Below are positions 3,135-20,769 of a stretch of 45,623 bases of DNA, in pieces. Every line of letters begins with the position of its first letter. The stretch's first letter is position 1. This stretch comes from a virus (lineage: Duplodnaviria; Heunggongvirae; Uroviricota; Caudoviricetes), in the IMG/VR virus record IMGVR_UViG_2537561936_000015. One strand, given 5' to 3'. The notes below the pieces were generated by a model, which searched no databases, was not told the DNA's origin, and saw only the letters and a program-made list of their open reading frames with translations. The translations under genes and the position numbers were made by a program.

Positions 3135-3737
3135 ATGAGCTATTTTCTGCGCAAAAAATGGATGGTAAATTTGTCCGGGTCAGGAAAAATTTTATGGGCG
3201 CTAAACATGAAAAAAGATTCGTATCCTTATTTGATTTGCATGACAGTTTCAGGGCTGATCTTTATTTTCCTTTTCTTCTGGTGGCGGGCAGATATCTACA
3301 GGGTCACGTTTCTTAATCAGAGTATATCCCACTATTACATTCTGTTTAGCATGGGAATAGCTTTTCTGTTATCTCTGTTTTGGGTTAAGAAGGGGATAGT
3401 AAAACAAAGAGGCTGGAAGAGTCTGTCAGCATACCTTAAGGTTTATGCAGGGATGTGCATATTTGCAGGATTTTTTCTGATTATACCCCTTACGACACTA
3501 ACTTATTTTTTGCCTGGAGAGACATCGTCTTATGTTGCACCGTATCGGTATACTTCCGGTAGTTCAAAAAGTTGTTCTGGAGCTGAGGTGGATGACCCCG
3601 ATCTACATGAGAATATTCGCATTTGCTATCCGTATGGCAATTATGAGTACGATAATATTATCTATGTTGAAAAGAAAATTAATATATTAGGTGCGGTAGT
3701 GACATATGCACAGACCGCGCGTGATGATACTGAATGA
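3135..3737 (+). CDS. Hypothetical integral membrane protein (3 predicted TM helices + ~75-aa C-terminal soluble domain); AT-rich moron gene
   Basis: 200-aa ORF on opposite strand to the early-left operon; hydrophobic segments YLICMTVSGLIFIFLFFWW, ILFSMGIAFLLSLFWV, VYAGMCIFAGFFLIIPLTTLTYFL; alternative start at 3207 (MKKDSYP..); strongly AT-rich region. Confidence 0.55.
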   Translation: MSYFLRKKWMVNLSGSGKILWALNMKKDSYPYLICMTVSGLIFIFLFFWWRADIYRVTFLNQSISHYYILFSMGIAFLLSLFWVKKGIVKQRGWKSLSAYLKVYAGMCIFAGFFLIIPLTTLTYFLPGETSSYVAPYRYTSGSSKSCSGAEVDDPDLHENIRICYPYGNYEYDNIIYVEKKINILGAVVTYAQTARDDTE

Positions 3738-5583: not shown

Positions 5584-6365
5584 GCTGCCCCCTTCTGCTC
5601 AGTGGCTTTCTGTTTCAGGAATCCAAGAGCTTTCACTGCTTCGGCCTGTGTCAGTTCTGACGATGCGCGAATGTCGCGGCGAAATATCTGGGAACAGAGC
5701 GGCAATAAGTCGTCATCCCATGTTTTATCCAGGGCGATCAGCAGAGTGTTAATCTCCTGCATGGTTTCATCGTTAACCGGAGTGATGTCGCGTTCCGGCT
5801 GACGTTCTGCAGTGTATGCAGTATTTTCGACAATGCGCTCGGCTTCATCCTTGTCATAGATACCAGCAAATCCGAAGGCCAGACGGGCACACTGAATCAT
5901 GGCTTTATGCCGTAACATCCGTTTGGGATGCGACTGCCACGGCCCCGTAATTTCTCTGCCTTCGCGAGTTTTGAATGGTTCGCGGCGGCATTCATCCATC
6001 CATTCGGTAACGCAGATCGGATGATTACGGTCCTTGCGGTAAATCCGGCATGTACAGGATTCATTGTCCTGCTCAAAGTCCATGCCATCAAACTGCTGGT
6101 TTTCATTGATGATGCGGGACCAGCCATCAACGCCCACCACCGGAACGATGCCGTTCTGCTTATCAGGGAAGGCGTAAATTTCTTTCGTCCACGGATTAAG
6201 GCCGTACTGGTTGGCGACGATCAACAATGCGATGAACTGCGCATCGCTGGCATCACCTTTAAATGCCGTCTGGCGAAGAGTGGTGATCAGTTCCTGTGGG
6301 TCGACAGAATCCATGCCGACACGTTCAGCCAGCTTCCCTGCCAGCGTTGCGAGTGCTGTACTCAT
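5580..6365 (-). CDS. bet: Recombination protein Bet (Red-beta, single-strand annealing)
   Basis: 261-aa [69 protein letters not shown].. recognised as lambda Bet. Confidence 0.97.
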
Positions 6366-6370
6366 CCGTT

Positions 6371-6667
6371 TTATACCTCTGAATCAATATCAACCTGGTG
6401 GCGGGCAATAGTTTCAACCATGTACCGTATGTGTTCTGCCATGCGTTCCTGAAACTCAACATCGTCATCAAACGCACGGGTAATGGCTTTTTTGCTGGCC
6501 CCGTGGCGTTGCAAATGATCGATGCATAGCGATTCAAACAGGTGCTGGGGCAGGCCTTTTTCCATGTCGTCTGCCAGTTCTGCCTCTTTCTCTTCACGGG
6601 CGATCTGCTGGTAGTGACGCGCCCAGCTCTGAGCCTCAAGACGATCCTGAATGTAATAAGCGTTCAT
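6371..6667 (-). CDS. gam: Gam, RecBCD inhibitor (98-aa short form only)
   Basis: [60 protein letters not shown].. recognised as lambda Gam; in-frame TAA 19 codons upstream of the ATG. Confidence 0.9.
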
Positions 6668-6743
6668 GGCTGAACTCCTGAAAATGGCTGTGAAAATATC
6701 GCCCGCGAAATGCCAGGCTGATTAGGAAAACAGGAAAGGGGGG

Positions 6744-6950
6744 TTAGTGATTCAGGCCGTTACCGCGTCCGTCGAGAAAAACTTCCACGAGCAAATCACG
6801 GGTATAAGTGCGCTCGATGCCGCGATGCAGATAAAGCCGTCCGCGTAAATTAGCTGATGCAGTCCAGGTACCATCTTTGTGTTTGACCAGCATTCCTGGC
6901 ATGACCGCACCTCGATTAACGGTCTGCGTTCCGTAATGTTGATGAACCAT
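6744..6950 (-). CDS. Hypothetical early-left protein (68 aa) in the kil/cIII position
   Basis: ORF MVHQHYGTQTVNRGAVMPGMLVKHKDGTWTASANLRGRLYLHRGIERTYTRDLLVEVFLDGRGNGLNH with AGGAG 5 nt upstream of ATG; longer 96-aa frame has poorer RBS. Confidence 0.45.
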   Translation of the reverse strand: MVHQHYGTQTVNRGAVMPGMLVKHKDGTWTASANLRGRLYLHRGIERTYTRDLLVEVFLDGRGNGLNH

Positions 6951-7080
6951 AAAAACTCCTGCCCGTAAGCTGGGCTGCTGAACATATAAAGACTTCTGCG
7001 CGTATTCAGGCGGTGGATGGCCGCCGGTTGTCATAACTAAGCCGCCTCGTTGAAGCGACTAAGGTATGAAATGTTGAGTT

Positions 7081-7221
7081 AATTTCAGCTGGTCACACCG
7101 ACGTTCACGCGTCCGTTTCACCCCTCGCACTCCCCGAAGCCTGCTGAAATTCAAACTGCGGATCTAAGCGGTCATCGCAACGGTGAATCAGGTAGTTGCC
7201 GTATCGTTGTGTTGTTGCGAT
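7081..7221 (-). ncRNA. Structured PL leader; candidate put-like cis-acting antiterminator RNA (two stem-loops)
   Basis: Inverted repeats AATTTCAGC(7081-7089)/GCTGAAATT(7143-7151) and ATCGCAAC(7174-7181)/GTTGCGAT(7214-7221) directly downstream of predicted PL; no ORF in 7035-7545. Confidence 0.3.
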
Positions 7222-7275
7222 GAACTTATTTAAAACTATAGTTGTTTTATCGTCAACAACAAAAGTTGTTTTATT
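7222..7275 (-). promoter_or_regulatory. Putative PL promoter with OL operators (-35 TTGACG, 17-bp spacer, -10 TTAAAT on minus strand; AACAAC/GTTGTT half-sites)
   Basis: Near-duplicate of the PR module at 8277-8312 (GTTGTTGAC[G/T]A..AACAAC.ATAGTTTTAA). Confidence 0.45.
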
Positions 7276-7545
7276 GGTTGTTTTAGATATAACTGGTTGT
7301 ATTTAGGATGGATTTATTTTGTGACTTGAATCGCATAGCGATAACTGAAGCGAGGTTATGGTGGTTTTTTTAACGGTGTGTGTGATGAGGGGAGGGCAAA
7401 AGAAAACCCGGCACGGTGACCGGGATTCTTACGCCGTTAGGTAAAGATATTATTGCGGTGGCTTAATATTACTACCTAGAGCAAAGATAGGAATTAGTTC
7501 TTTACTGAATGAGCACAATGCCCAGTTGATAATTTTTAATTGGTA

Positions 7546-8235
7546 CTACCCATGCTTCCTATATGTCTGCGGCATGCTCCCAATAACCTTACCGAAGATG
7601 AACACCCGGTTCATCTCGTCTTTCTCGATCGGGTCCCACGGTGAGTAGCTTTTGTTATCAGAGATGACCAGCAGCTTATTCTTCATCATTTGCAGGCGCT
7701 TTACATGGGCTGTGTCGTCGTACAGAAACGCATAGATACCATCACCGTCGAAAGATTTAACTGTGATATCAACGAACAGCAGATCACCTGGTTCGATCGT
7801 TCCTGACATGCTGTCACCACGCACGTTAATGATGCGGATATTTTCCGCCTTCCTACCATCGAACATGTGACGAGCATCGTCAAACGAGTACTCAACCGAG
7901 CGTAGAACTTCTACAAACTCACGGTTGATGACTCCCGGCCCAGCACTGACTTCTATATCAAGAACGTCAATCTTGAAGTATTTGGAATGGCTGACAGTTG
8001 ATTGTATTGGTTGCACTGTACTGTCTGACATATTTCCAACGCCAGAAGATAACCATTCTGCGCGCACACCCAAAGCGTTCGCGATCTCCACGATTTTAGT
8101 TGTTTGATTAGCTTTCCCTGTTTCGATTTTCTGAATAGCAGCCTGGCTAACCCCGACCAAATCCCCAAGCGCCTTTTGTGTAAGGCCTCGCGCTAATCTG
8201 GCTTCTTTAAGTCTTTCTGAGAGTGTTGTTTTCAT
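7546..8235 (-). CDS. cI: CI-type prophage repressor (N-terminal HTH + C-terminal LexA/S24 autocleavage domain)
   Basis: 229-aa ORF from MKTTLSERLKEARLARGLTQKALGDLVGVSQAAIQKIE.. with GDSM..K S24 motifs; divergent from cro; not lambda or 434 cI. Confidence 0.85.
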   Translation of the reverse strand: MKTTLSERLKEARLARGLTQKALGDLVGVSQAAIQKIETGKANQTTKIVEIANALGVRAEWLSSGVGNMSDSTVQPIQSTVSHSKYFKIDVLDIEVSAGPGVINREFVEVLRSVEYSFDDARHMFDGRKAENIRIINVRGDSMSGTIEPGDLLFVDITVKSFDGDGIYAFLYDDTAHVKRLQMMKNKLLVISDNKSYSPWDPIEKDEMNRVFIFGKVIGSMPQTYRKHG

Positions 8236-8239
8236 AGTC

Positions 8240-8325
8240 CAAATGTACAACCAAGGTTTTATTCCATCAAACGAAAATGGTTGTTGACTAAAAACAACCA
8301 TAGTTTTAATCTTGATTCAAATTAA
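8240..8325. promoter_or_regulatory. OR/PR-PRM region: palindromic operator ATGGTTGTT-N7-AACAACCAT (8278-8301), PR -35 TTGACT / -10 TAATCT
   Basis: Perfect 9-bp inverted repeat overlapping promoter hexamers between divergent cI and cro. Confidence 0.55.
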
Positions 8326-8339
8326 CCACGGAGGTTGTT

Positions 8340-8570
8340 ATGAACCCAGCTATCAAAACAGCGATCAATATCGTTGGTTCACAAAAGAAACTGGGCGCTG
8401 CTTGCGAAGTTTCACAGCAGGCCGTCTATAAGTGGCTTCACAACAAAGCAAAGGTATCCCCTGAACATGTCGGCAGCATTGTTACGGCTACTGGTGGAGT
8501 AGTGAAGGCATACCAGATTCGCCCGGATCTTCCGAAGTTGTTTCCACACACCGAAAAGAACGCAGCTTAA
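8340..8570 (+). CDS. cro: Cro-like HTH regulator (YdaS/Cro family)
   Basis: 76-aa ORF, HTH SQKKLGAACEVSQQAVYKWL; GGAGG RBS; divergent from repressor. Confidence 0.75.
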   Translation: MNPAIKTAINIVGSQKKLGAACEVSQQAVYKWLHNKAKVSPEHVGSIVTATGGVVKAYQIRPDLPKLFPHTEKNAA

Positions 8571-8639
8571 ATTTCCATTTCACGCTCTTTAACAATAAGC
8601 AATCAACTTAACAGTCAATTCAAACTAAAGGAGTCAATT

Positions 8640-9179
8640 ATGCAACCACTTACATACCAACAGACTAGCGGATTTAGCCCGACTGCGGTGATAAATCGTT
8701 CTCAAACAAAACAGGTGCCAGGCCACGAAAAAATCCGTGATGCCGTCCGCGCCTGGTCGGCTGTAGATAATCAGGATGTCGTTGCCACACTCATTGTGAA
8801 TGAGTATCGGGAGCAGGGCGGCGGCACCATCGATTTCCCTGATGATGTCAGCCGTGCACGCCAGAAGCTGTTCCGCTTCCTCGATAACAAATTCGATTCT
8901 GAAAAATACCGAAATAATGTGCGTGAACTGACCCCGGCAATTCTGGCGGTACTACCGCTGGAATATCGCGGTTACCTGGTTGAGCAGGATAGCTTCATGG
9001 CTAGGTTGGCTGAAATGGAAAAGGAACTCAGTGAGGCAAAACAGGCTGTCATTCTCAACGCACCACGCCACCAGAAACTGAAGGAAATTAGTGAAGGTAT
9101 TGTGTCGATGTTTCGTGTGGACCCAGATCTGGCTGGTCCATTGATGGCGATGGTTACTACCATGCTGGGGGCGATATGA
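8640..9179 (+). CDS. YdaT-like regulatory protein in the cII position (function uncertain)
   Basis: 179-aa ORF after cro with AAGGAG RBS; family assignment from memory only. Confidence 0.5.
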   Translation: MQPLTYQQTSGFSPTAVINRSQTKQVPGHEKIRDAVRAWSAVDNQDVVATLIVNEYREQGGGTIDFPDDVSRARQKLFRFLDNKFDSEKYRNNVRELTPAILAVLPLEYRGYLVEQDSFMARLAEMEKELSEAKQAVILNAPRHQKLKEISEGIVSMFRVDPDLAGPLMAMVTTMLGAI

Positions 9180-9265
9180 CAGGTTCAGAAATGGCGAAAG
9201 CCGGTCTGCTGGAACAGAACCGACTTTCAGGTGCAAATCGTAACACACTCATTGCGGGAGGAATT

Positions 9266-10195
9266 ATGGCAAACACTGCTGAGATATTCAATTTTCCAGT
9301 GCCGGATGCGGCACAAAAGGAGCCGCGCGTGGCAGATCTCGATGATGGTTATACGCGCATTGCAAATGAGTTGCTGGAAGCTGTGATGCTGGCCGGATTA
9401 ACACAGCACCAGCTTCTGGTCTTCCTGGCTGTCATGCGCAAAACATATGGCTTTAATAAAAAACTGGATTGGGTGAGCAACGAGCAACTTTCCGAGTTGA
9501 CCGGGATATTGCCGCACAAGTGTTCTGCTGCAAAAAGTGTTCTGGTAAAGCGTGGGATTTTTATTCAGAGTGGGCGGAATATCGGCATTAATAATGTGGT
9601 CAGTGAATGGTCAACATTACCCGAATCAGGTAAGAAAAATAAAGTTTACCTGAAAGAGGTAAATTTACCTGAATCAGGTAAGAAAAGTTTACCCAAATCA
9701 GGTAAAGGCGTTTACCCGAATCAGGTAAACACAAAAGACAAACTAACAAAAGACAATATAAAACCTTTTTCGTCCGAGAATTCTGGCGAATCCTCTGACC
9801 AGCCAGAAAACGACTTTCCTTTGGAGAAACTGGATGCTGCAATTCAGAGCGGCAGCAAGTGGGGGACAGCAGAAGACCTGACCGCCGCAGAGTGGATGTT
9901 TAACATGGTGAAGACCATCGCGCCCTCAGCCAGAAAACCGAATTTTGCAGGGTGGGCTAACGATATCCGCCTGATGCGTGAACGTGACGGACGTAACCAC
10001 CGCGACATGTGCGTGCTGTTCCGCTGGGCATGCCAGGACAACTTCTGGTCCGGTAACGTGCTGAGTCCGGCCAAACTCCGCGACAAGTGGACCCAACTCG
10101 AAATCAACCGTAACAAGCAACAGGCTGGCGTGACAACCGGAAAATCAAAACTCGACCTGACAAACACTGACTGGATTTACGGGGTGGATTTATGA
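9266..10195 (+). CDS. O: Replication initiator O (non-lambda N-terminal domain, lambda-like C-terminal P-interaction domain)
   Basis: MANTAEIFNFPVPDAAQKEPRVADLDDGYTRIANELLEA.. resembles lambda O N-terminus; C-terminal ~110 aa reads as lambda O; contains iterons. Confidence 0.85.
   Translation: MANTAEIFNFPVPDAAQKEPRVADLDDGYTRIANELLEAVMLAGLTQHQLLVFLAVMRKTYGFNKKLDWVSNEQLSELTGILPHKCSAAKSVLVKRGIFIQSGRNIGINNVVSEWSTLPESGKKNKVYLKEVNLPESGKKSLPKSGKGVYPNQVNTKDKLTKDNIKPFSSENSGESSDQPENDFPLEKLDAAIQSGSKWGTAEDLTAAEWMFNMVKTIAPSARKPNFAGWANDIRLMRERDGRNHRDMCVLFRWACQDNFWSGNVLSPAKLRDKWTQLEINRNKQQAGVTTGKSKLDLTNTDWIYGVDL
9616..9775. repeat. ori: Origin of replication: five ~19-bp palindromic iterons (TTTACCYRAATCAGGTAAR) at 9616-9729 plus A-rich segment inside O
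   Basis: Repeats visible at 9616, 9645, 9664, 9688, 9711 followed by ACAAAAGACAAACTAACAAAAGACAATATAAAACC. Confidence 0.75.
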
Positions 10196-10893: not shown

Positions 10894-11192
10894 CGGGCAA
10901 AGAGGCAATTATTCATTACCTGGGGACTCATAAGAAATTCTGTGCGCAGGACGTTGCCGCGGTAACAGGCGCAACGGTAACCAGCATAAATCAGGCTGCG
11001 GCTAAAATGGCGCGGGCAGGAATCCTGGTCGTTGATGGTAAGGTCTGGCGAACGGTGTATTATCGGTTCGCTACCAGAGAAGAATGGGAAGGAAAGGTGA
11101 GCACGAATTTGATTTTTAAGGAGTGTCGCCAGAGTGCCGCGATGAAACGGGTATTGAGGGTATATAAAAGAACATCAATGGGTACACAATGA
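10890..11192 (+). CDS. ren: Ren (Rex exclusion escape protein), lambda-type
   Basis: MTGKEAIIHYLGTHKKFCAQDVAAVTGATVTSINQAAAKMARAGILVVDGKVWRTVYYRFATREE.. recognised as lambda Ren. Confidence 0.85.
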   Translation: MTGKEAIIHYLGTHKKFCAQDVAAVTGATVTSINQAAAKMARAGILVVDGKVWRTVYYRFATREEWEGKVSTNLIFKECRQSAAMKRVLRVYKRTSMGTQ

Positions 11193-11259
11193 TGAAACAG
11201 GTGAGTTGAGTTCAAACTGTAGTACAATTCTCTCCAGTTTGAACAGGAAAGAATATGCT

Positions 11260-11592
11260 ATGAATCCTTATATTTATCTTGGTGGTGCAATACTTGCAGA
11301 GGTCATTGGTACAACCTTAATGAAGTTTTCAGAAGGTTTTACACGGTTATGGCCATCTGTTGGTACAATTATTTGTTATTGTGCATCATTCTGGTTATTA
11401 GCTCAGACGCTGGCTTATATTCCTACAGGGATTGCTTATGCTATCTGGTCAGGAGTCGGTATTGTCCTGATTAGCTTACTATCATGGGGATTTTTCGGCC
11501 AACGGTTGGACCTGCCAGCCATTATAGGCATGATGTTGATTTGTGCCGGTGTGTTGGTTATTAATTTATTGTCACGAAGCACACCACATTAA
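11260..11592 (+). CDS. emrE: Small multidrug resistance (SMR) efflux transporter EmrE
   Basis: 110-aa MNPYIYLGGAILAEVIGTTLMKFSEGFTRLWPSVGTIICYCASFWLLAQTLAYIP.. recognised as E. coli EmrE (DLP12 cargo gene). Confidence 0.9.
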   Translation: MNPYIYLGGAILAEVIGTTLMKFSEGFTRLWPSVGTIICYCASFWLLAQTLAYIPTGIAYAIWSGVGIVLISLLSWGFFGQRLDLPAIIGMMLICAGVLVINLLSRSTPH

Positions 11593-11847
11593 AAATAATT
11601 TGTTTTTAAACGACTAAAATATGGAGGCTCGTATATTTATATGGGCCTCGTTTTATGCTTTTTGTTAATGTCTTTAGTTTTTATTCATTCTTTTGTGCTT
11701 TCAAGATTATGGTGTAAGAAAATTGCAATACGATTATTGTTGTATATTCAAGATAATGTGACCTTAATTGTCTTTTTAAATAAAAATTAAACAAAAATCA
11801 TATCTCACCACTAAGGTTTATAAAAGCATACTTTAGCAGGTGTCACC

Positions 11848-13374
11848 ATGAAAAAAGCCATAGCATATATGCGATTTTCATCACCAGGTCAGATGTCTGG
11901 TGATTCATTAAACCGCCAGAGAAGGCTTATTACTGAATGGCTAAAGGTAAATAGTGATTATTACCTTGATACCGTAACGTATGAAGATTTGGGGTTAAGC
12001 GCATTCAATGGAAAGCATGCACAATCAGGAGCTTTTTCGGAATTTTTAGATGCTATAGAACATGGTTATATATTGCCAGGGACTACATTGTTAGTTGAAA
12101 GTCTGGACAGACTTTCAAGAGAAAAAGTCGGTGAAGCGATTGAGCGTCTGAAATTGATTTTGAATCACGGTATTGATGTTATAACTCTTTGCGATAATAC
12201 AGTCTATAATATTGACTCATTGAATGAGCCATATTCATTAATAAAAGCCATACTTATAGCACAAAGGGCAAATGAAGAAAGCGAGATAAAGTCAAGTCGG
12301 GTTAAATTATCATGGAAGAAAAAACGGCAGGATGCACTGGAGTCAGGCACGATTATGACGGCGTCTTGTCCGAGATGGCTCTCATTGGATGACAAAAGAA
12401 CGGCTTTTGTTCCAGACCCCGACAGGGTGAAAACTATTGAGCTAATTTTTAAACTCAGGATGGAAAGGCGCTCATTGAATGCAATAGCCAAGTATTTAAA
12501 TGATCATGCTGTAAAGAATTTCTCAGGAAAAGAAAGTGCATGGGGACCTTCTGTAATTGAAAAATTATTAGCGAATAAAGCTCTGATAGGTATATGCGTA
12601 CCTTCATATCGTGCAAGAGGTAAAGGAATAAGTGAAATCGCTGGCTATTATCCCAGAGTCATATCAGATGATTTGTTTTACGCTGTGCAGGAAATTCGGT
12701 TGGCACCTTTTGGTATTAGCAATAGTAGCAAAAATCCTATGTTGATAAATCTACTTCGAACAGTTATGAAGTGCGAGGCTTGTGGTAATACCATGATTGT
12801 TCATGCGGTATCTGGAAGTTTGCATGGCTATTATGTTTGTCCGATGAGAAGACTGCATCGATGTGACAGGCCATCAATAAAGAGAGATTTGGTTGATTAT
12901 AATATCATTAATGAGTTGCTTTTTAATTGTAGTAAAATCCAACCAGTTGAAAACAAGAAAGATGCTAATGAAACTTTAGAGTTGAAAATTATTGAGCTCC
13001 AGATGAAAATTAATAATTTAATTGCTGCATTATCTGTTGCGCCTGAAGTTACCGCTATAGCAGAAAAAATCAGAGTATTAGATAAGGAATTACGAAGGGC
13101 TTCTGTATCATTAAAAACTTTGAAGAGTAAAGCGGTGAGTTCACTTGGTGATTTTCATGCTATTGACTTAACCAGTAAAAATGGGCGAGAGCTATGTCGT
13201 ACACTTGCCTATAAAACATTCGAAAAAATCATAATCAATACAGATAATAAAACCTGTGATATCTATTTTATGAATGGCATTGTTTTTAAACACTATCCTT
13301 TAATGAAAACAATATCTGCCCAGCAGGCGATAAGTACTCTCAAATATATGGTTGATGGTGAGGTTTATTTTTGA
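11848..13374 (+). CDS. ybcK: Large serine recombinase (DLP12 YbcK-like)
   Basis: 508-aa ORF, N-terminal resolvase-type catalytic region (AYMRFSSPGQ); AT-rich; same position as ybcK in DLP12. Confidence 0.85.
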   Translation: MKKAIAYMRFSSPGQMSGDSLNRQRRLITEWLKVNSDYYLDTVTYEDLGLSAFNGKHAQSGAFSEFLDAIEHGYILPGTTLLVESLDRLSREKVGEAIERLKLILNHGIDVITLCDNTVYNIDSLNEPYSLIKAILIAQRANEESEIKSSRVKLSWKKKRQDALESGTIMTASCPRWLSLDDKRTAFVPDPDRVKTIELIFKLRMERRSLNAIAKYLNDHAVKNFSGKESAWGPSVIEKLLANKALIGICVPSYRARGKGISEIAGYYPRVISDDLFYAVQEIRLAPFGISNSSKNPMLINLLRTVMKCEACGNTMIVHAVSGSLHGYYVCPMRRLHRCDRPSIKRDLVDYNIINELLFNCSKIQPVENKKDANETLELKIIELQMKINNLIAALSVAPEVTAIAEKIRVLDKELRRASVSLKTLKSKAVSSLGDFHAIDLTSKNGRELCRTLAYKTFEKIIINTDNKTCDIYFMNGIVFKHYPLMKTISAQQAISTLKYMVDGEVYF

Positions 13375-13485
13375 GTAATAATCACTTTTTCAACCGTGCT
13401 ATAGTAAGAAAGTTAGGTAAGTACAATAAAATTATCTATCCTGAACGAAGCGTCCTGAGCTATGGTTTTACTATAGGGACTGCCA

Positions 13486-13809
13486 ATGGATGCTGGCGTT
13501 CTCGTTCTAGCAGTTCAACAATCCCCAATCACAAAACAATTCACTGATAACGAACTTTGCACACTCGCCTGGTTATGGCGAGCAGGGAATGTGATGTTAA
13601 TTACCTACCAGAACGTTCCTCCTCTTCTTCAGGTTGCGGAGCATCGTGAAGCTGGTCGCTTCACTTCTATCGAGCAAGAATATCCCCAGATACTCAACAG
13701 AGCGCGAGCAATCCTCGTCCGAGAAACGGCACATGTAAAACTTCAGCCGTGGCAGGATGATAAGTGGAGTCGAGTATTGCCGCATTTACCTCAGAATCTG
13801 TTTCAATAA
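13486..13809 (+). CDS. Hypothetical protein (107 aa), unrecognised
   Basis: ORF with GGGA 6 nt upstream of ATG; stop codon two codons upstream in frame; no motif recognised. Confidence 0.4.
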   Translation: MDAGVLVLAVQQSPITKQFTDNELCTLAWLWRAGNVMLITYQNVPPLLQVAEHREAGRFTSIEQEYPQILNRARAILVRETAHVKLQPWQDDKWSRVLPHLPQNLFQ

Positions 13810-13827
13810 AGGCGCTAGTTAGTAAGG

Positions 13828-13853
13828 CTTCCGTCATTCTGCGATGACGGAAG
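13828..13853. repeat. Perfect 10-bp-stem palindrome CTTCCGTCAT-tctgcg-ATGACGGAAG
   Basis: Directly after ORF107 stop; no U-run, so terminator or protein-binding site. Confidence 0.4.
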
Positions 13854-13983
13854 TGCGGGCTGCGTACGGGAGAGCAATTGCATGAATAATATAAATATTC
13901 CGCTCACTCCATATAGCGATTTCTGATACAAACTTATCTATTGTGGTAAAATTATAGAAACAAACTTATAGCGTACTAACCAT

Positions 13984-14766
13984 ATGGACAATATTAATAA
14001 ACACGGGCTCTCAAGAAGAATACCTGAGACAATAAAACGTCAGATAAGGCAAAGGTGCGGCTTTGGCTGTGTAATTTGTGGATTTGGATTTTATGATTAT
14101 GAGCATTTTAAACCTGACTTCGTTGATGCCAAAGTACATGATCCGAATGGAATGACACTTCTTTGCTCCCAATGCAATCAAAAAAGAGCTCGTGGTAGAC
14201 TTTCAGCACAGACAGTGGAAATAGCTGACAGAAATCCCAAGTGCTTACAGGCTGGTTTTGCAAATGAAATGTTTGATTTTCATAATGAGCCTATAACAGT
14301 AAAATTTGCAGGAGTGACGTTTCATAACTGTCAAAATTTGATTGTAGTCAACGAACAACCCATTCTTTCTGTGAAACCTTCACCCATACCACATGGACCG
14401 ATGCTTTTATCAGGAATTTTCTGTAATTCTATTGGTAAGGAGACTTTACTGATAGATGAAAATGAATGGAAAGCTAAATCAGACAATTGGGATGTGGAGT
14501 GTACCGGCCCGCGTATAACAATACGACGTGGGCCAGGAGAGTTTGCCCTCGTTCTAAAAATGGAACCTCCAACAGGATTGATTGTTGAGCGTCTTGATAT
14601 GTTGTATGAAGGGGTCAGGATGAAAGGAGATAAAGATCTGCTGGAAGTTTCGATTAATGGAGGTCCCTTGCACAGATGGCAATCATGCTCAATGTCAAAT
14701 TGCCATACAGGGCTTGCGATTCAGGGCGGTATTAGAGCTGCTAATGATCCTTTGTATTGCGCCTAA
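13984..14766 (+). CDS. Hypothetical protein with N-terminal HNH (His-Me finger) nuclease-like zinc-finger motif and ~190-aa unknown C-terminal domain
   Basis: 260-aa ORF; residues 24-66 RCGFGCVICG..YDYEHF..HDPNGMTLLCSQCNQKR give Cys cluster-EH-N-CxxC spacing; AT-rich codon usage; not AraC-like. Confidence 0.6.
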   Translation: MDNINKHGLSRRIPETIKRQIRQRCGFGCVICGFGFYDYEHFKPDFVDAKVHDPNGMTLLCSQCNQKRARGRLSAQTVEIADRNPKCLQAGFANEMFDFHNEPITVKFAGVTFHNCQNLIVVNEQPILSVKPSPIPHGPMLLSGIFCNSIGKETLLIDENEWKAKSDNWDVECTGPRITIRRGPGEFALVLKMEPPTGLIVERLDMLYEGVRMKGDKDLLEVSINGGPLHRWQSCSMSNCHTGLAIQGGIRAANDPLYCA

Positions 14767-14808
14767 ATCCACTAAATTGATTTTCAACAATCAACTTGCC
14801 ATAATTAA

Positions 14809-14840
14809 GTCACCGGAGTTTGAACTCCTCCGGTGACTTC
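14809..14840 (+). terminator. Hairpin GTCACCGGAG-loop-CTCCGGTGAC after the 260-aa ORF (putative terminator)
   Basis: Perfect 10-bp stem, 9-nt loop, followed by TTCTGCGC. Confidence 0.4.
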
Positions 14841-14860
14841 TGCGCTAAACGGGGACGTTT

Positions 14861-14962
14861 ATGCGCACATACAATCCAACCTCTCTTCTCCATTCACAGA
14901 TGCAGAAATGCACCTGCGATATTTTGCATCCAGCGTTTGATCTCTGCGGAGGTGAAGCGTGA
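14861..14962 (+). CDS. ylcH: Small protein YlcH-like (33 aa), translationally coupled to ybcN
   Basis: [33 protein letters not shown]; stop overlaps ybcN GTG start (GTGA). Confidence 0.5.
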
Positions 14963-17020: not shown

Positions 17021-18103
17021 TTAGAACTGGTAAACCATACCTACAGCAACGATATCATCGGTAGCAACGCCAGATGCTTTCGTGAAATCGCTCTTATCAA
17101 TCAGGTTGATTTTGTAATCAACAAAAGTGGACATATTTTTGTTGAAGTAATAGGTTGCACCTACATCAATATATTCAACCAGGTCCTGATCACCCCACGC
17201 ACCCAAGTCTTTTCCTTTAGATTGCAGGTAAGCAACGGACGGACGCAGACCGAAGTCGAACTGATATTGTGCAACTACTTCGAAGTTTTGTGCTTTGTTG
17301 GCAATATGGTTATTACCAAAAACAGTCATGTTCTGGGTTTCAGAATAGGTGGTAGCCAGATAGATGTTGTTCGCATCATATTTCAGACCAGCTGCCCATA
17401 CTTCAGCATTTTGACCAGATGCATTCAGGCTGTTGTTACCGTAGATAACCTGATTATTAGTGCGGTCAGATTTAGCATAGGTTGCACCTACACCGAATCC
17501 TTCATACTCATAAGTAGTGGAGAAACCGAAACCATCACCATTAGCTTCAGTTACGTCAGTGCGGTCATTTTTACCCTGATACTGAGCAGCAAAGTTCAGA
17601 CCATCAACCAGACCAAAGAAGTCATTGTTACGATAAGTTGCAACACCTGTGGTGCGACCAGTCATGAATACATCTGTTTGGGTCCAGGTATCGCCACCGA
17701 ATTCTGGCAGAACGTCGGTCCATGCACCAATATCGTATGCTACACCGTAGTTACGGCCATAATCGATGGAGCCGTAGTCACCGAATTTCAGGCCAGCGAA
17801 GGCAAGACGGGTTTTGTCTTTGGAGGAACCTTGAGATTCAGCGCGGTTGCCTTTGAATTCATATTCCCACTGACCGAAACCAGTCAGTTGATCGTTGATT
17901 TGGGTTTCACCTTTGAAGCCAAGACGGGCATAAGTAGTATCACCATCATCTGCATCATTAGAGGAGAAGTAGTGCTTAGCATTAACTTTCCCGTACAGAT
18001 CCAGCTTGTTACTGTCTTTATTATAAATTTCAGCTGCCTGAGCAGACATCGCCATCAGTACTGATGCAGCTACAGCAGAAATTGCCACTGTTAATTTTTT
18101 CAT
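17021..18103 (-). CDS. nmpC: Outer membrane porin (NmpC/OmpD, OmpC family), lysogenic-conversion gene, apparently intact
   Basis: 360-aa ORF with signal peptide [24 protein letters not shown]-terminal ..VAVGMVYQF typical of general porins; opposite strand between Q and lysis genes as in DLP12. Confidence 0.9.
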
Positions 18104-20358: not shown

Positions 20359-20769
20359 TTAGTGCGGAAATATTTGTGTAGTGTTCTGAATGTTCTCAGT
20401 AAAGAGTAATGAATTATCAAAGGTATAGTAATACCTTTTGTTTTCGTGGATATTTGTAATCCATCTGAAAACCCCTGCTGTAGCAAGATTTTTCCTGTAT
20501 TCGTAAAATGATAACTCTCCTGATTTGAATCCTTTTAAGGTGGCTTCTATAAGGCATTTATTTTTTGAAAATCTTACATTTACAACCTTACCCTGTCCTT
20601 TTATTAAAACCGTATTATCGTTTTCAAGAACAAGATGAATATTCTCTGTAGCTAAATAGTAAATGTAATGTGAGACATTGTGACGTTTTAGTTCAGAATA
20701 AAACCAGTGATAGTTTAAATTATTTCGCACTTTATCGAATATTTGTTTAAAAATGGCAACCTGAGCCAT
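20359..20769 (-). CDS. ybcV: DUF1398-family protein YbcV-like
   Basis: 136-aa [67 protein letters not shown].. recognised as DLP12 YbcV-like. Confidence 0.7.

Follow-up and report, generated by a model that had tools for sequence, protein, structure and literature searches.

In the early-right region of a lambda-like prophage, two open reading frames (ORFs) of 107 and 260 codons, ORF107 and ORF260, lie between the serine recombinase gene ybcK and the overlapping ylcH-like and ybcN (ninB) genes, raising the question of whether they form one unit and what that unit does. The DNA analysed is viral record IMGVR_UViG_2537561936_000015 (45,623 nucleotides; the window, to which coordinates refer unless another locus is named), which is 100% identical to E. 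coli GPEC60-12-649 (NZ_CM160084.1); the segment in question spans 13375-14860. An initial annotation, made from the letters alone, had listed the two ORFs, a palindrome, a hairpin and the motif RCGFGCVICG..YDYEHF..HDPNGMTLLCSQCNQKR in ORF260, all of which are present (Table 1), and had proposed a single-effector defence or abortive-infection nuclease with ORF107 as possible partner or regulator. The cargo unit is one gene, not two: ORF260 by itself forms an autonomous moron in the lambdoid early-right region. A defence nuclease is still its most plausible role, by inference from context, but without ORF107: with roughly even confidence, ORF260 may be a one-protein nuclease acting against phages or other mobile DNA.

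ORF260 combines an HNH nuclease domain with a new beta-meander domain

ORF260 is a real and intact gene whose product shows an HNH fold built round a conserved catalytic core; it has no conserved partner and moves singly. That it is a real gene follows from its homologues, 305 among clusters at 90% identity and 2741 (870 with E<1e-30) when a profile was run against the representatives of clusters at 50% identity. The N-terminal domain had been read initially as an HNH/His-Me finger nuclease, and this is borne out by the fold, the conserved catalytic residues and relatives that pass the Pfam HNH threshold. The beta-beta-alpha-metal fold typical of the superfamily is present, as are a catalytic His following an acidic residue and a His/Asn metal ligand in the helix. 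In an alignment of 386 members, C29, C32, H41, H52 and C61 are essentially invariant; H41 is found in 383 relatives, 370 have an acidic residue (E or D) at position 40, and position 65 is occupied by H in 249 and by N in 126, ORF260 having N here (an 'HNN' variant). ORF260 itself misses the Pfam PF01844 gathering cut-off (14.5 bits vs 21.4), relative P0175 clears it (25.0 bits), and the link of ORF260 to HNH is thus transitive.

The rest of the protein matches nothing known, as first noticed: ~170 amino acids (aa) are without counterpart in Pfam, PADLOC, NCBIfam, the PDB or a comparison with reader domains. NCBIfam gave no match to ORF260, the best phmmer hit in the PDB had an E value of 1.9, a profile search of the PDB returned only a spurious match to gp160 (E 0.057), and no relative of known structure was detectable for the C-terminal domain, in which N160 and W169-D170 are near-invariant. 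The nuclease half is ordinary; out of the ordinary are the C-terminal fold, the size and breadth of an unannotated family and its solo mobility. Two other kinds of protein were considered and set aside: a toxin of the colicin or contact-dependent type, since neither a delivery domain nor an immunity gene is present, and a terminase-associated HNH protein, for which location and size are wrong.

The family is broad and its genes travel alone

Nearly all homologues align over their full length, with both domains together, across many phyla; homologue loci come from Proteobacteria, Cyanobacteria, Planctomycetes, Chloroflexi, Acidobacteria, Bacillota, Deinococcus, Chlamydiae and a Methanothrix metagenome-assembled genome. 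Some proteins bear C-terminal additions (SEC-C motif, TPR repeats or a CxxCxxCC domain). Among 5426 complete E. coli genomes, 82 carry ORF260 at ≥99% identity, always on the chromosome, and in 80 of these over ≥80% of its length. Only one of 50,697 sequenced phage records has a homologue, and plasmids rarely do (7 records). A literature search on the RefSeq accession and on lambdoid single-gene HNH defence found nothing specific.

In a set of 86 loci, none of the neighbouring protein families is present at more than five, and the few that recur differ in position and strand; the 149 immediate neighbours match any given Pfam or PADLOC family three times at most. Components of defence systems are scattered among these neighbours (GmrSD, SLFN/AlbA_2, DrmMI, DpdE, ZorD and type I/IV restriction-modification components). 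In prophages, homologues occupy different positions: after gene P and before a RES-domain gene in Enterobacter, alone and on the opposite strand in Pseudomonas, in the nin region of an induced prophage in Klebsiella, and, in Alcaligenes, between the tail and the lysis genes, where a type IV-REase-like HNH gene and a DUF4238 gene adjoin it. In Comamonas the homologue is chromosomal, next to a divergent XRE-type regulator.

One case of solo movement is a V. cholerae homologue, 53% identical to ORF260, that lies alone between V. cholerae repeat (VCR)/attC sites (locus L013: gene 750-1499, VCRs 605-728 and 1495-1618), and so constitutes an attC-flanked, single-gene HNH-like cassette. Its neighbours are cassettes for an acetyltransferase and a glyoxalase. 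The homologue is rare and environmental, falls in a cluster of seven members and is not the pandemic N16961 cassette. A subfamily with a canonical CxxCH and a C-terminal SEC-C zinc motif was seen in Photobacterium, Vibrio and Marinomonas, also in Aeromonas and Providencia (e.g. L051 and L057, both 5995-6927, and L052, 5272-6204), and is named in databases only as 'SEC-C metal-binding domain-containing protein'. Between Photobacterium, Vibrio and Marinomonas the DNA of this gene is 96-98% identical, and this identity is confined to ~963-1008 bp, its upstream boundary lying at the GTT of an attC-like site; such near-identical copies across genera point to very recent cassette transfer. A search seeded with the Vibrio members of this subfamily found no pandemic V. 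cholerae protein among its best 120 matches.

Two prophages hold further genes of interest. Directly downstream of the homologue in the Alcaligenes prophage L015 are, at 6983-9338, a gene for a 245-aa HNH protein (PADLOC mREase_IV, E 3.5e-7) and a DUF4238 gene, DUF4238 being a P2-hotspot defence gene; together they make up a small defence islet. The 245-aa HNH protein was tested as a candidate paralogue and rejected (E 0.076, match limited to the HNH motif). A Rac-like Enterobacter prophage (L003, 2024-2881, minus strand) encodes a DUF7946/DUF7947 protein beside the repressor, where lambda has rexAB; this is a possible exclusion gene.

Borders of the cargo and exchange in the slot

Cargo borders were set by blastn of the region against related phages and prophages. 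Homology to the block containing ORF107 and the palindrome extends to 13789 in phage Turner and to 13860 in PhiR5_1, and restarts at 14777 in both, with unrelated small ORFs of unknown function in place of ORF260. These breaks delimit an exchangeable unit of ~13861-14776, consisting of ORF260 and 123 bp of AT-rich upstream DNA. The AT-richness noted at the outset was confirmed by the G+C profile, which is 0.37-0.45 along ORF260, whereas the nin genes have 0.50-0.54 and O/P 0.53-0.58; still lower values belong to the emrE-ybcK segment (0.30-0.42). The upstream DNA contains a sigma-70-like site (CTGATA-18-TAAAAT with TG, 13923-13952; 9/12 consensus match).

The two inverted repeats lie outside this unit. 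As RNA, the palindrome folds with -20.7 kcal/mol (z -2.4) and is not followed by a T-run; it falls within the stretch homologous to PhiR5_1, which ends at 13860, and moves with the ORF107/Rha block, for which it may be a transcription stop, or else a regulatory site. The hairpin that had been described as a terminator is present (-20.4 kcal/mol, z -5.1, no shuffled sequence folding equally well), but belongs to the conserved ninB-side flank shared with Turner and PhiR5_1. A scan for consensus terminators did not call it, and only TTCT follows it. This right flank (14777-14860) matches phage 82 (X92588, 85.7%), a record that places promoter signals there.

In two other E. coli prophages (L019 and L020, both 580-2511), a gene for a 643-aa SIR2-family protein is found between gene P and ninB, in a slot corresponding to window ~10900-14776. 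This protein matches the PADLOC models SIR2 (pAgo-associated) and PDC-S65 (a candidate model). Homology of both prophages to the window halts at 13713 and restarts at 14717, so that, downstream of the SIR2 gene, the last 50 bp of ORF260 are joined to a decayed fragment of an ORF107-like pseudogene. The SIR2 prophages are deletion derivatives, and the adjacency of ORF107 and ORF260 is thus old within this lineage. Exchange of cargo at this position, as originally proposed, is thus seen both with the SIR2 gene and with the small ORFs of Turner and PhiR5_1, and the SIR2 gene suggests that the ren-ninB interval of lambdoid phages behaves as a hot-spot for defence cargo. In E. coli K-12 the interval holds ybcL/ybcM. 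As a correction of context, the prophage in the window is a complete lambda-like element adjoining ybhC rather than DLP12 at argU. The emrE-ybcK-ORF107-ORF260-ybcN module is also found in an argU prophage of strain FWSEC0008.

ORF260 as a candidate defence nuclease

Several of these features favour defence as the role of ORF260: its autonomy and mobility as a single gene, the prophage-moron and integron contexts, the SIR2 defence-type gene filling the same slot in sibling prophages, the scattered defence genes among neighbours, and the promoter-like site and foreign base composition of ORF260 itself. There is also published precedent in Sirona and Nemetona, distantly HNH-like single-gene cassettes of the V. 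cholerae superintegron that protect against phages (Darracq et al., bioRxiv 10.1101/2024.07.02.601686). Both were missed by DefenseFinder at the time, and Sirona homologues occur in 34 genera of Pseudomonadota (bioRxiv 10.1101/2024.07.02.601686); Sirona has since been reported by DefenseFinder in Citrobacter and in a prophage (PMC13268207, PMC12874462) and re-isolated by T4 selection (10.64898/2026.03.17.712381). ORF260 is likened to these proteins by description (single-gene, HNH-like), not by sequence. Were it a Sirona homologue, the defence phenotype would already be published, leaving only mechanism and fold.

A lysogen would transcribe ORF260 from its own AT-rich promoter, and the nuclease would cut DNA with E40-H41 as general base and N65 as metal ligand. 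The C-terminal domain, with a putative site at N160/W169-D170, would restrict or license the nuclease. Like type IV restriction enzymes, it might recognise some feature of foreign DNA, be it a modified base or an unusual structure; alternatively, it might sense a phage product and free the nuclease, leading to abortive infection.

Among known systems, the type IV HNH restriction enzymes (EcoKMcrA, ScoMcrA, TagI, VcaM4I) come closest to the layout of ORF260, a solo HNH nuclease with a second domain, and like them ORF260 lacks a cognate methyltransferase (no conserved neighbour). In ORF260, however, the domain order is reversed, with HNH N-terminal, and the second domain is unlike SRA, PUA, SBD or the McrA N-terminal reader. 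Cap5 (HNH-SAVED) of cyclic oligonucleotide-based anti-phage signalling systems (CBASS) differs in its SAVED domain, which ORF260 does not have; only the HNH part aligns (97 residues), and no cyclase (CD-NTase) gene was found among neighbours of the family. Septu PtuB and retron HNH effectors show a weak profile match (PtuB E 0.031) and similarity of the HNH fold, but act with an ATPase or reverse-transcriptase partner, and neither lies beside ORF260.

A number of observations weigh against a defence role. There is no immunity or modification partner to explain self-tolerance. The central Asn of the HNH motif does not seem to be conserved: its canonical position, five before C61, is G56, and around it D/N53 and N55 vary, H52 being invariant. 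A match to a defence model was not obtained, PADLOC 2.0 giving only PtuB (E 0.03), and the C-terminal domain does not resemble modified-DNA readers (SRA, PUA/EVE, YTH, SBD, McrA-N). Promoter-like 9/12 matches number six in the region, compared with 3.6 +/- 1.9 expected. In other phyla many neighbours are housekeeping genes (ThiG, LepA, exonuclease VII), and the defence-island signal among neighbours is modest.

If ORF260 does act in defence, it would be a compact, partner-free nuclease of 260 aa whose regulation or targeting relies on a new fold, and would offer a tractable model of the way in which a solitary nuclease spares its host. It would add a widespread family, spreading singly via prophage slots and integrons, that is missing from PADLOC 2.0, NCBIfam and Pfam. 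A stronger version, tentative and rather doubtful at present, is that this large, unnamed and very broad family of solo HNH plus beta-meander proteins, found in bacteria and in at least one archaeal metagenome-assembled genome, is a new single-protein immune system, in which the beta-meander would be a novel sensor of phage infection or foreign DNA, distinct from catalogued systems including Sirona and Nemetona.

Other roles for ORF260

The next candidate, which we regard as unlikely, is a nin-region nuclease for recombination or processing of phage DNA, or for host repair, analogous to NinG/Rap, RusA and YbcO. ORF260 does belong to the early-right operon, where it is directly followed by ninB/ybcN, ninE, ybcO and rusA, ybcO (DUF1364) is annotated as an HNH endonuclease in phage Turner, ORF260 has a weak resemblance to NinG (phrog_5034, E 0.44; rank 4 by fold in BFVD), and the housekeeping neighbourhoods of many homologues in other phyla would suit such a role. 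A phage function of this kind is difficult to reconcile with a gene present in so few E. coli genomes (82 of 5426) and phage records (one of 50,697), which sibling phages swap for unrelated cargo while keeping the nin genes, and whose homologues also inhabit an integron cassette and non-phage islands.

The initial annotation had offered a free-standing homing endonuclease as its alternative, here a selfish HNH gene inserted between the Rha remnant and ninB. The precise borders, intergenic position and foreign base composition would fit, as would an HNH domain joined to a second one with the potential to bind DNA, but a Pfam scan found no NUMOD, IENR1 or HTH (helix-turn-helix) modules, and the C-terminal domain is all-beta and unmatched. 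Near-absence from phages, unrelated neighbours over 86 loci, which leave no cognate target gene evident, and conservation at 30-60% identity across phyla, integron cassettes included, make this explanation quite improbable.

We give very little probability to a toxin-like or addiction function, or to a weapon for counter-defence or against other phages, with the nuclease restrained by a factor that the host or the prophage encodes elsewhere: no small antitoxin-like ORF recurs beside ORF260 homologues, 80 E. coli genomes keep the gene stably intact at ≥99.7% identity, and the protein has no secretion or delivery domain. What speaks for it is that a solo nuclease is seen with no visible immunity gene, that the Comamonas homologue has a divergent XRE-type HTH gene upstream and the Enterobacter homologue adjoins a RES-domain gene, and that integron arrays are rich in toxin-antitoxin cassettes (bioRxiv 10.1101/2024.07.02.601686).

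ORF107 is the remnant of a Rha gene

ORF107 matches Pfam P22AR_C (E 3.3e-15) and phrog_7640, and aligns at 81% identity with residues 147-249 of the Rha protein (249 aa) from phage PhiR5_1. A Pfam scan found no N-terminal Rha/Bro-N/ANT domain, so that, compared with phage Rha and P22 Ant antirepressors, ORF107 has P22AR_C alone and is missing the N-terminal 146 residues. ORF107 is therefore the 3' remnant of a Rha/antirepressor gene. The gene was apparently cut short by insertion of an AT-rich block after ren (11260-13374), consisting of emrE (SMR efflux), ylcJ and the large serine recombinase gene ybcK. The same block is carried by phage Turner, an isolated phage, and is therefore compatible with a viable phage.

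ORF107 is unrelated to ORF260 and is not part of its unit. The block 13499-13860 (ORF107 and the palindrome) is common to phages bearing other cargo, and no P22AR_C gene was found beside ORF260 homologues in Enterobacter, Klebsiella, Pseudomonas, Comamonas, Alcaligenes or Vibrio. A 107-aa ORF upstream of the Klebsiella phage homologue was tested as a relative of ORF107 and is unrelated. The two-gene system first envisaged, with ORF107 as regulator or partner, is largely refuted and hardly credible: the ORFs are always adjacent in E. coli, with the whole 1486-bp segment in 80 genomes, and the deletion derivatives show an adjacency older than ybcK, but ORF107 is a truncated Rha C-terminus retained with other cargo in Turner and PhiR5_1, homologues elsewhere have neither a P22AR_C gene nor any conserved neighbour family beside them, and the pairing was not found beyond one lineage. 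The adjacency is old within the E. coli lineage, but it is an accident of history.

Other features of the window

Coordinates of ORF260, its domains and the flanking features are listed in Table 1.

Table 1 Features of the ORF260 locus and its flanks (window coordinates).
Feature	Coordinates	Strand	Description
ybcK	11848-13374		Serine recombinase; from the ORF list
ORF107	13486-13809	+	107 aa; P22AR_C only; RefSeq 'P22AR C-terminal domain-containing protein'
Palindrome	13828-13853	+	CTTCCGTCAT-TCTGCG-ATGACGGAAG; perfect 10-bp stem, 6-nt loop
Cargo upstream region	13861-13983	+	AT-rich, G+C about 0.37-0.40; left border of exchangeable segment
ORF260	13984-14766	+	260 aa; RefSeq WP_001348590.1 'hypothetical protein'; phrog_6544, unknown function
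ORF260 N-terminal domain	13984-14253	+	Residues 1-90; zinc-finger HNH (beta-beta-alpha-Me) nuclease
HNH core	14068-14178	+	C29/C32 via E40-H41 to C61/C64-N65
ORF260 C-terminal domain	14257-14721	+	Residues ~92-246; 17-strand antiparallel beta-meander
Last 50 bp of ORF260	14717-14766	+	Kept in SIR2 prophages, joined to ORF107-like pseudogene fragment
Conserved right flank start (ylcH/ninB side)	14777-14860	+	Includes the 14809-14837 hairpin; outside cargo
Hairpin	14809-14837	+	GTCACCGGAG-TTTGAACTC-CTCCGGTGAC; 10-bp stem, 9-nt loop
ylcH-like ORF	14861-14962		33 aa; overlaps ybcN start at 14959

Three further genes in the window are of note. A 200-aa hypothetical gene (3135-3737, plus strand; WP_001348592.1) lies near int/xis but runs against the leftward operon around it; matching nothing in Pfam or PADLOC, it is a candidate for further moron-like cargo. 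An OmpC/NmpC-type porin gene (17021-18103, minus strand) is carried by the prophage between Q and the lysis genes, and between the lysis and terminase genes, on the opposite strand, there is a DUF1398 gene (20359-20769, minus strand); both positions are typical moron sites of lambdoid phages.

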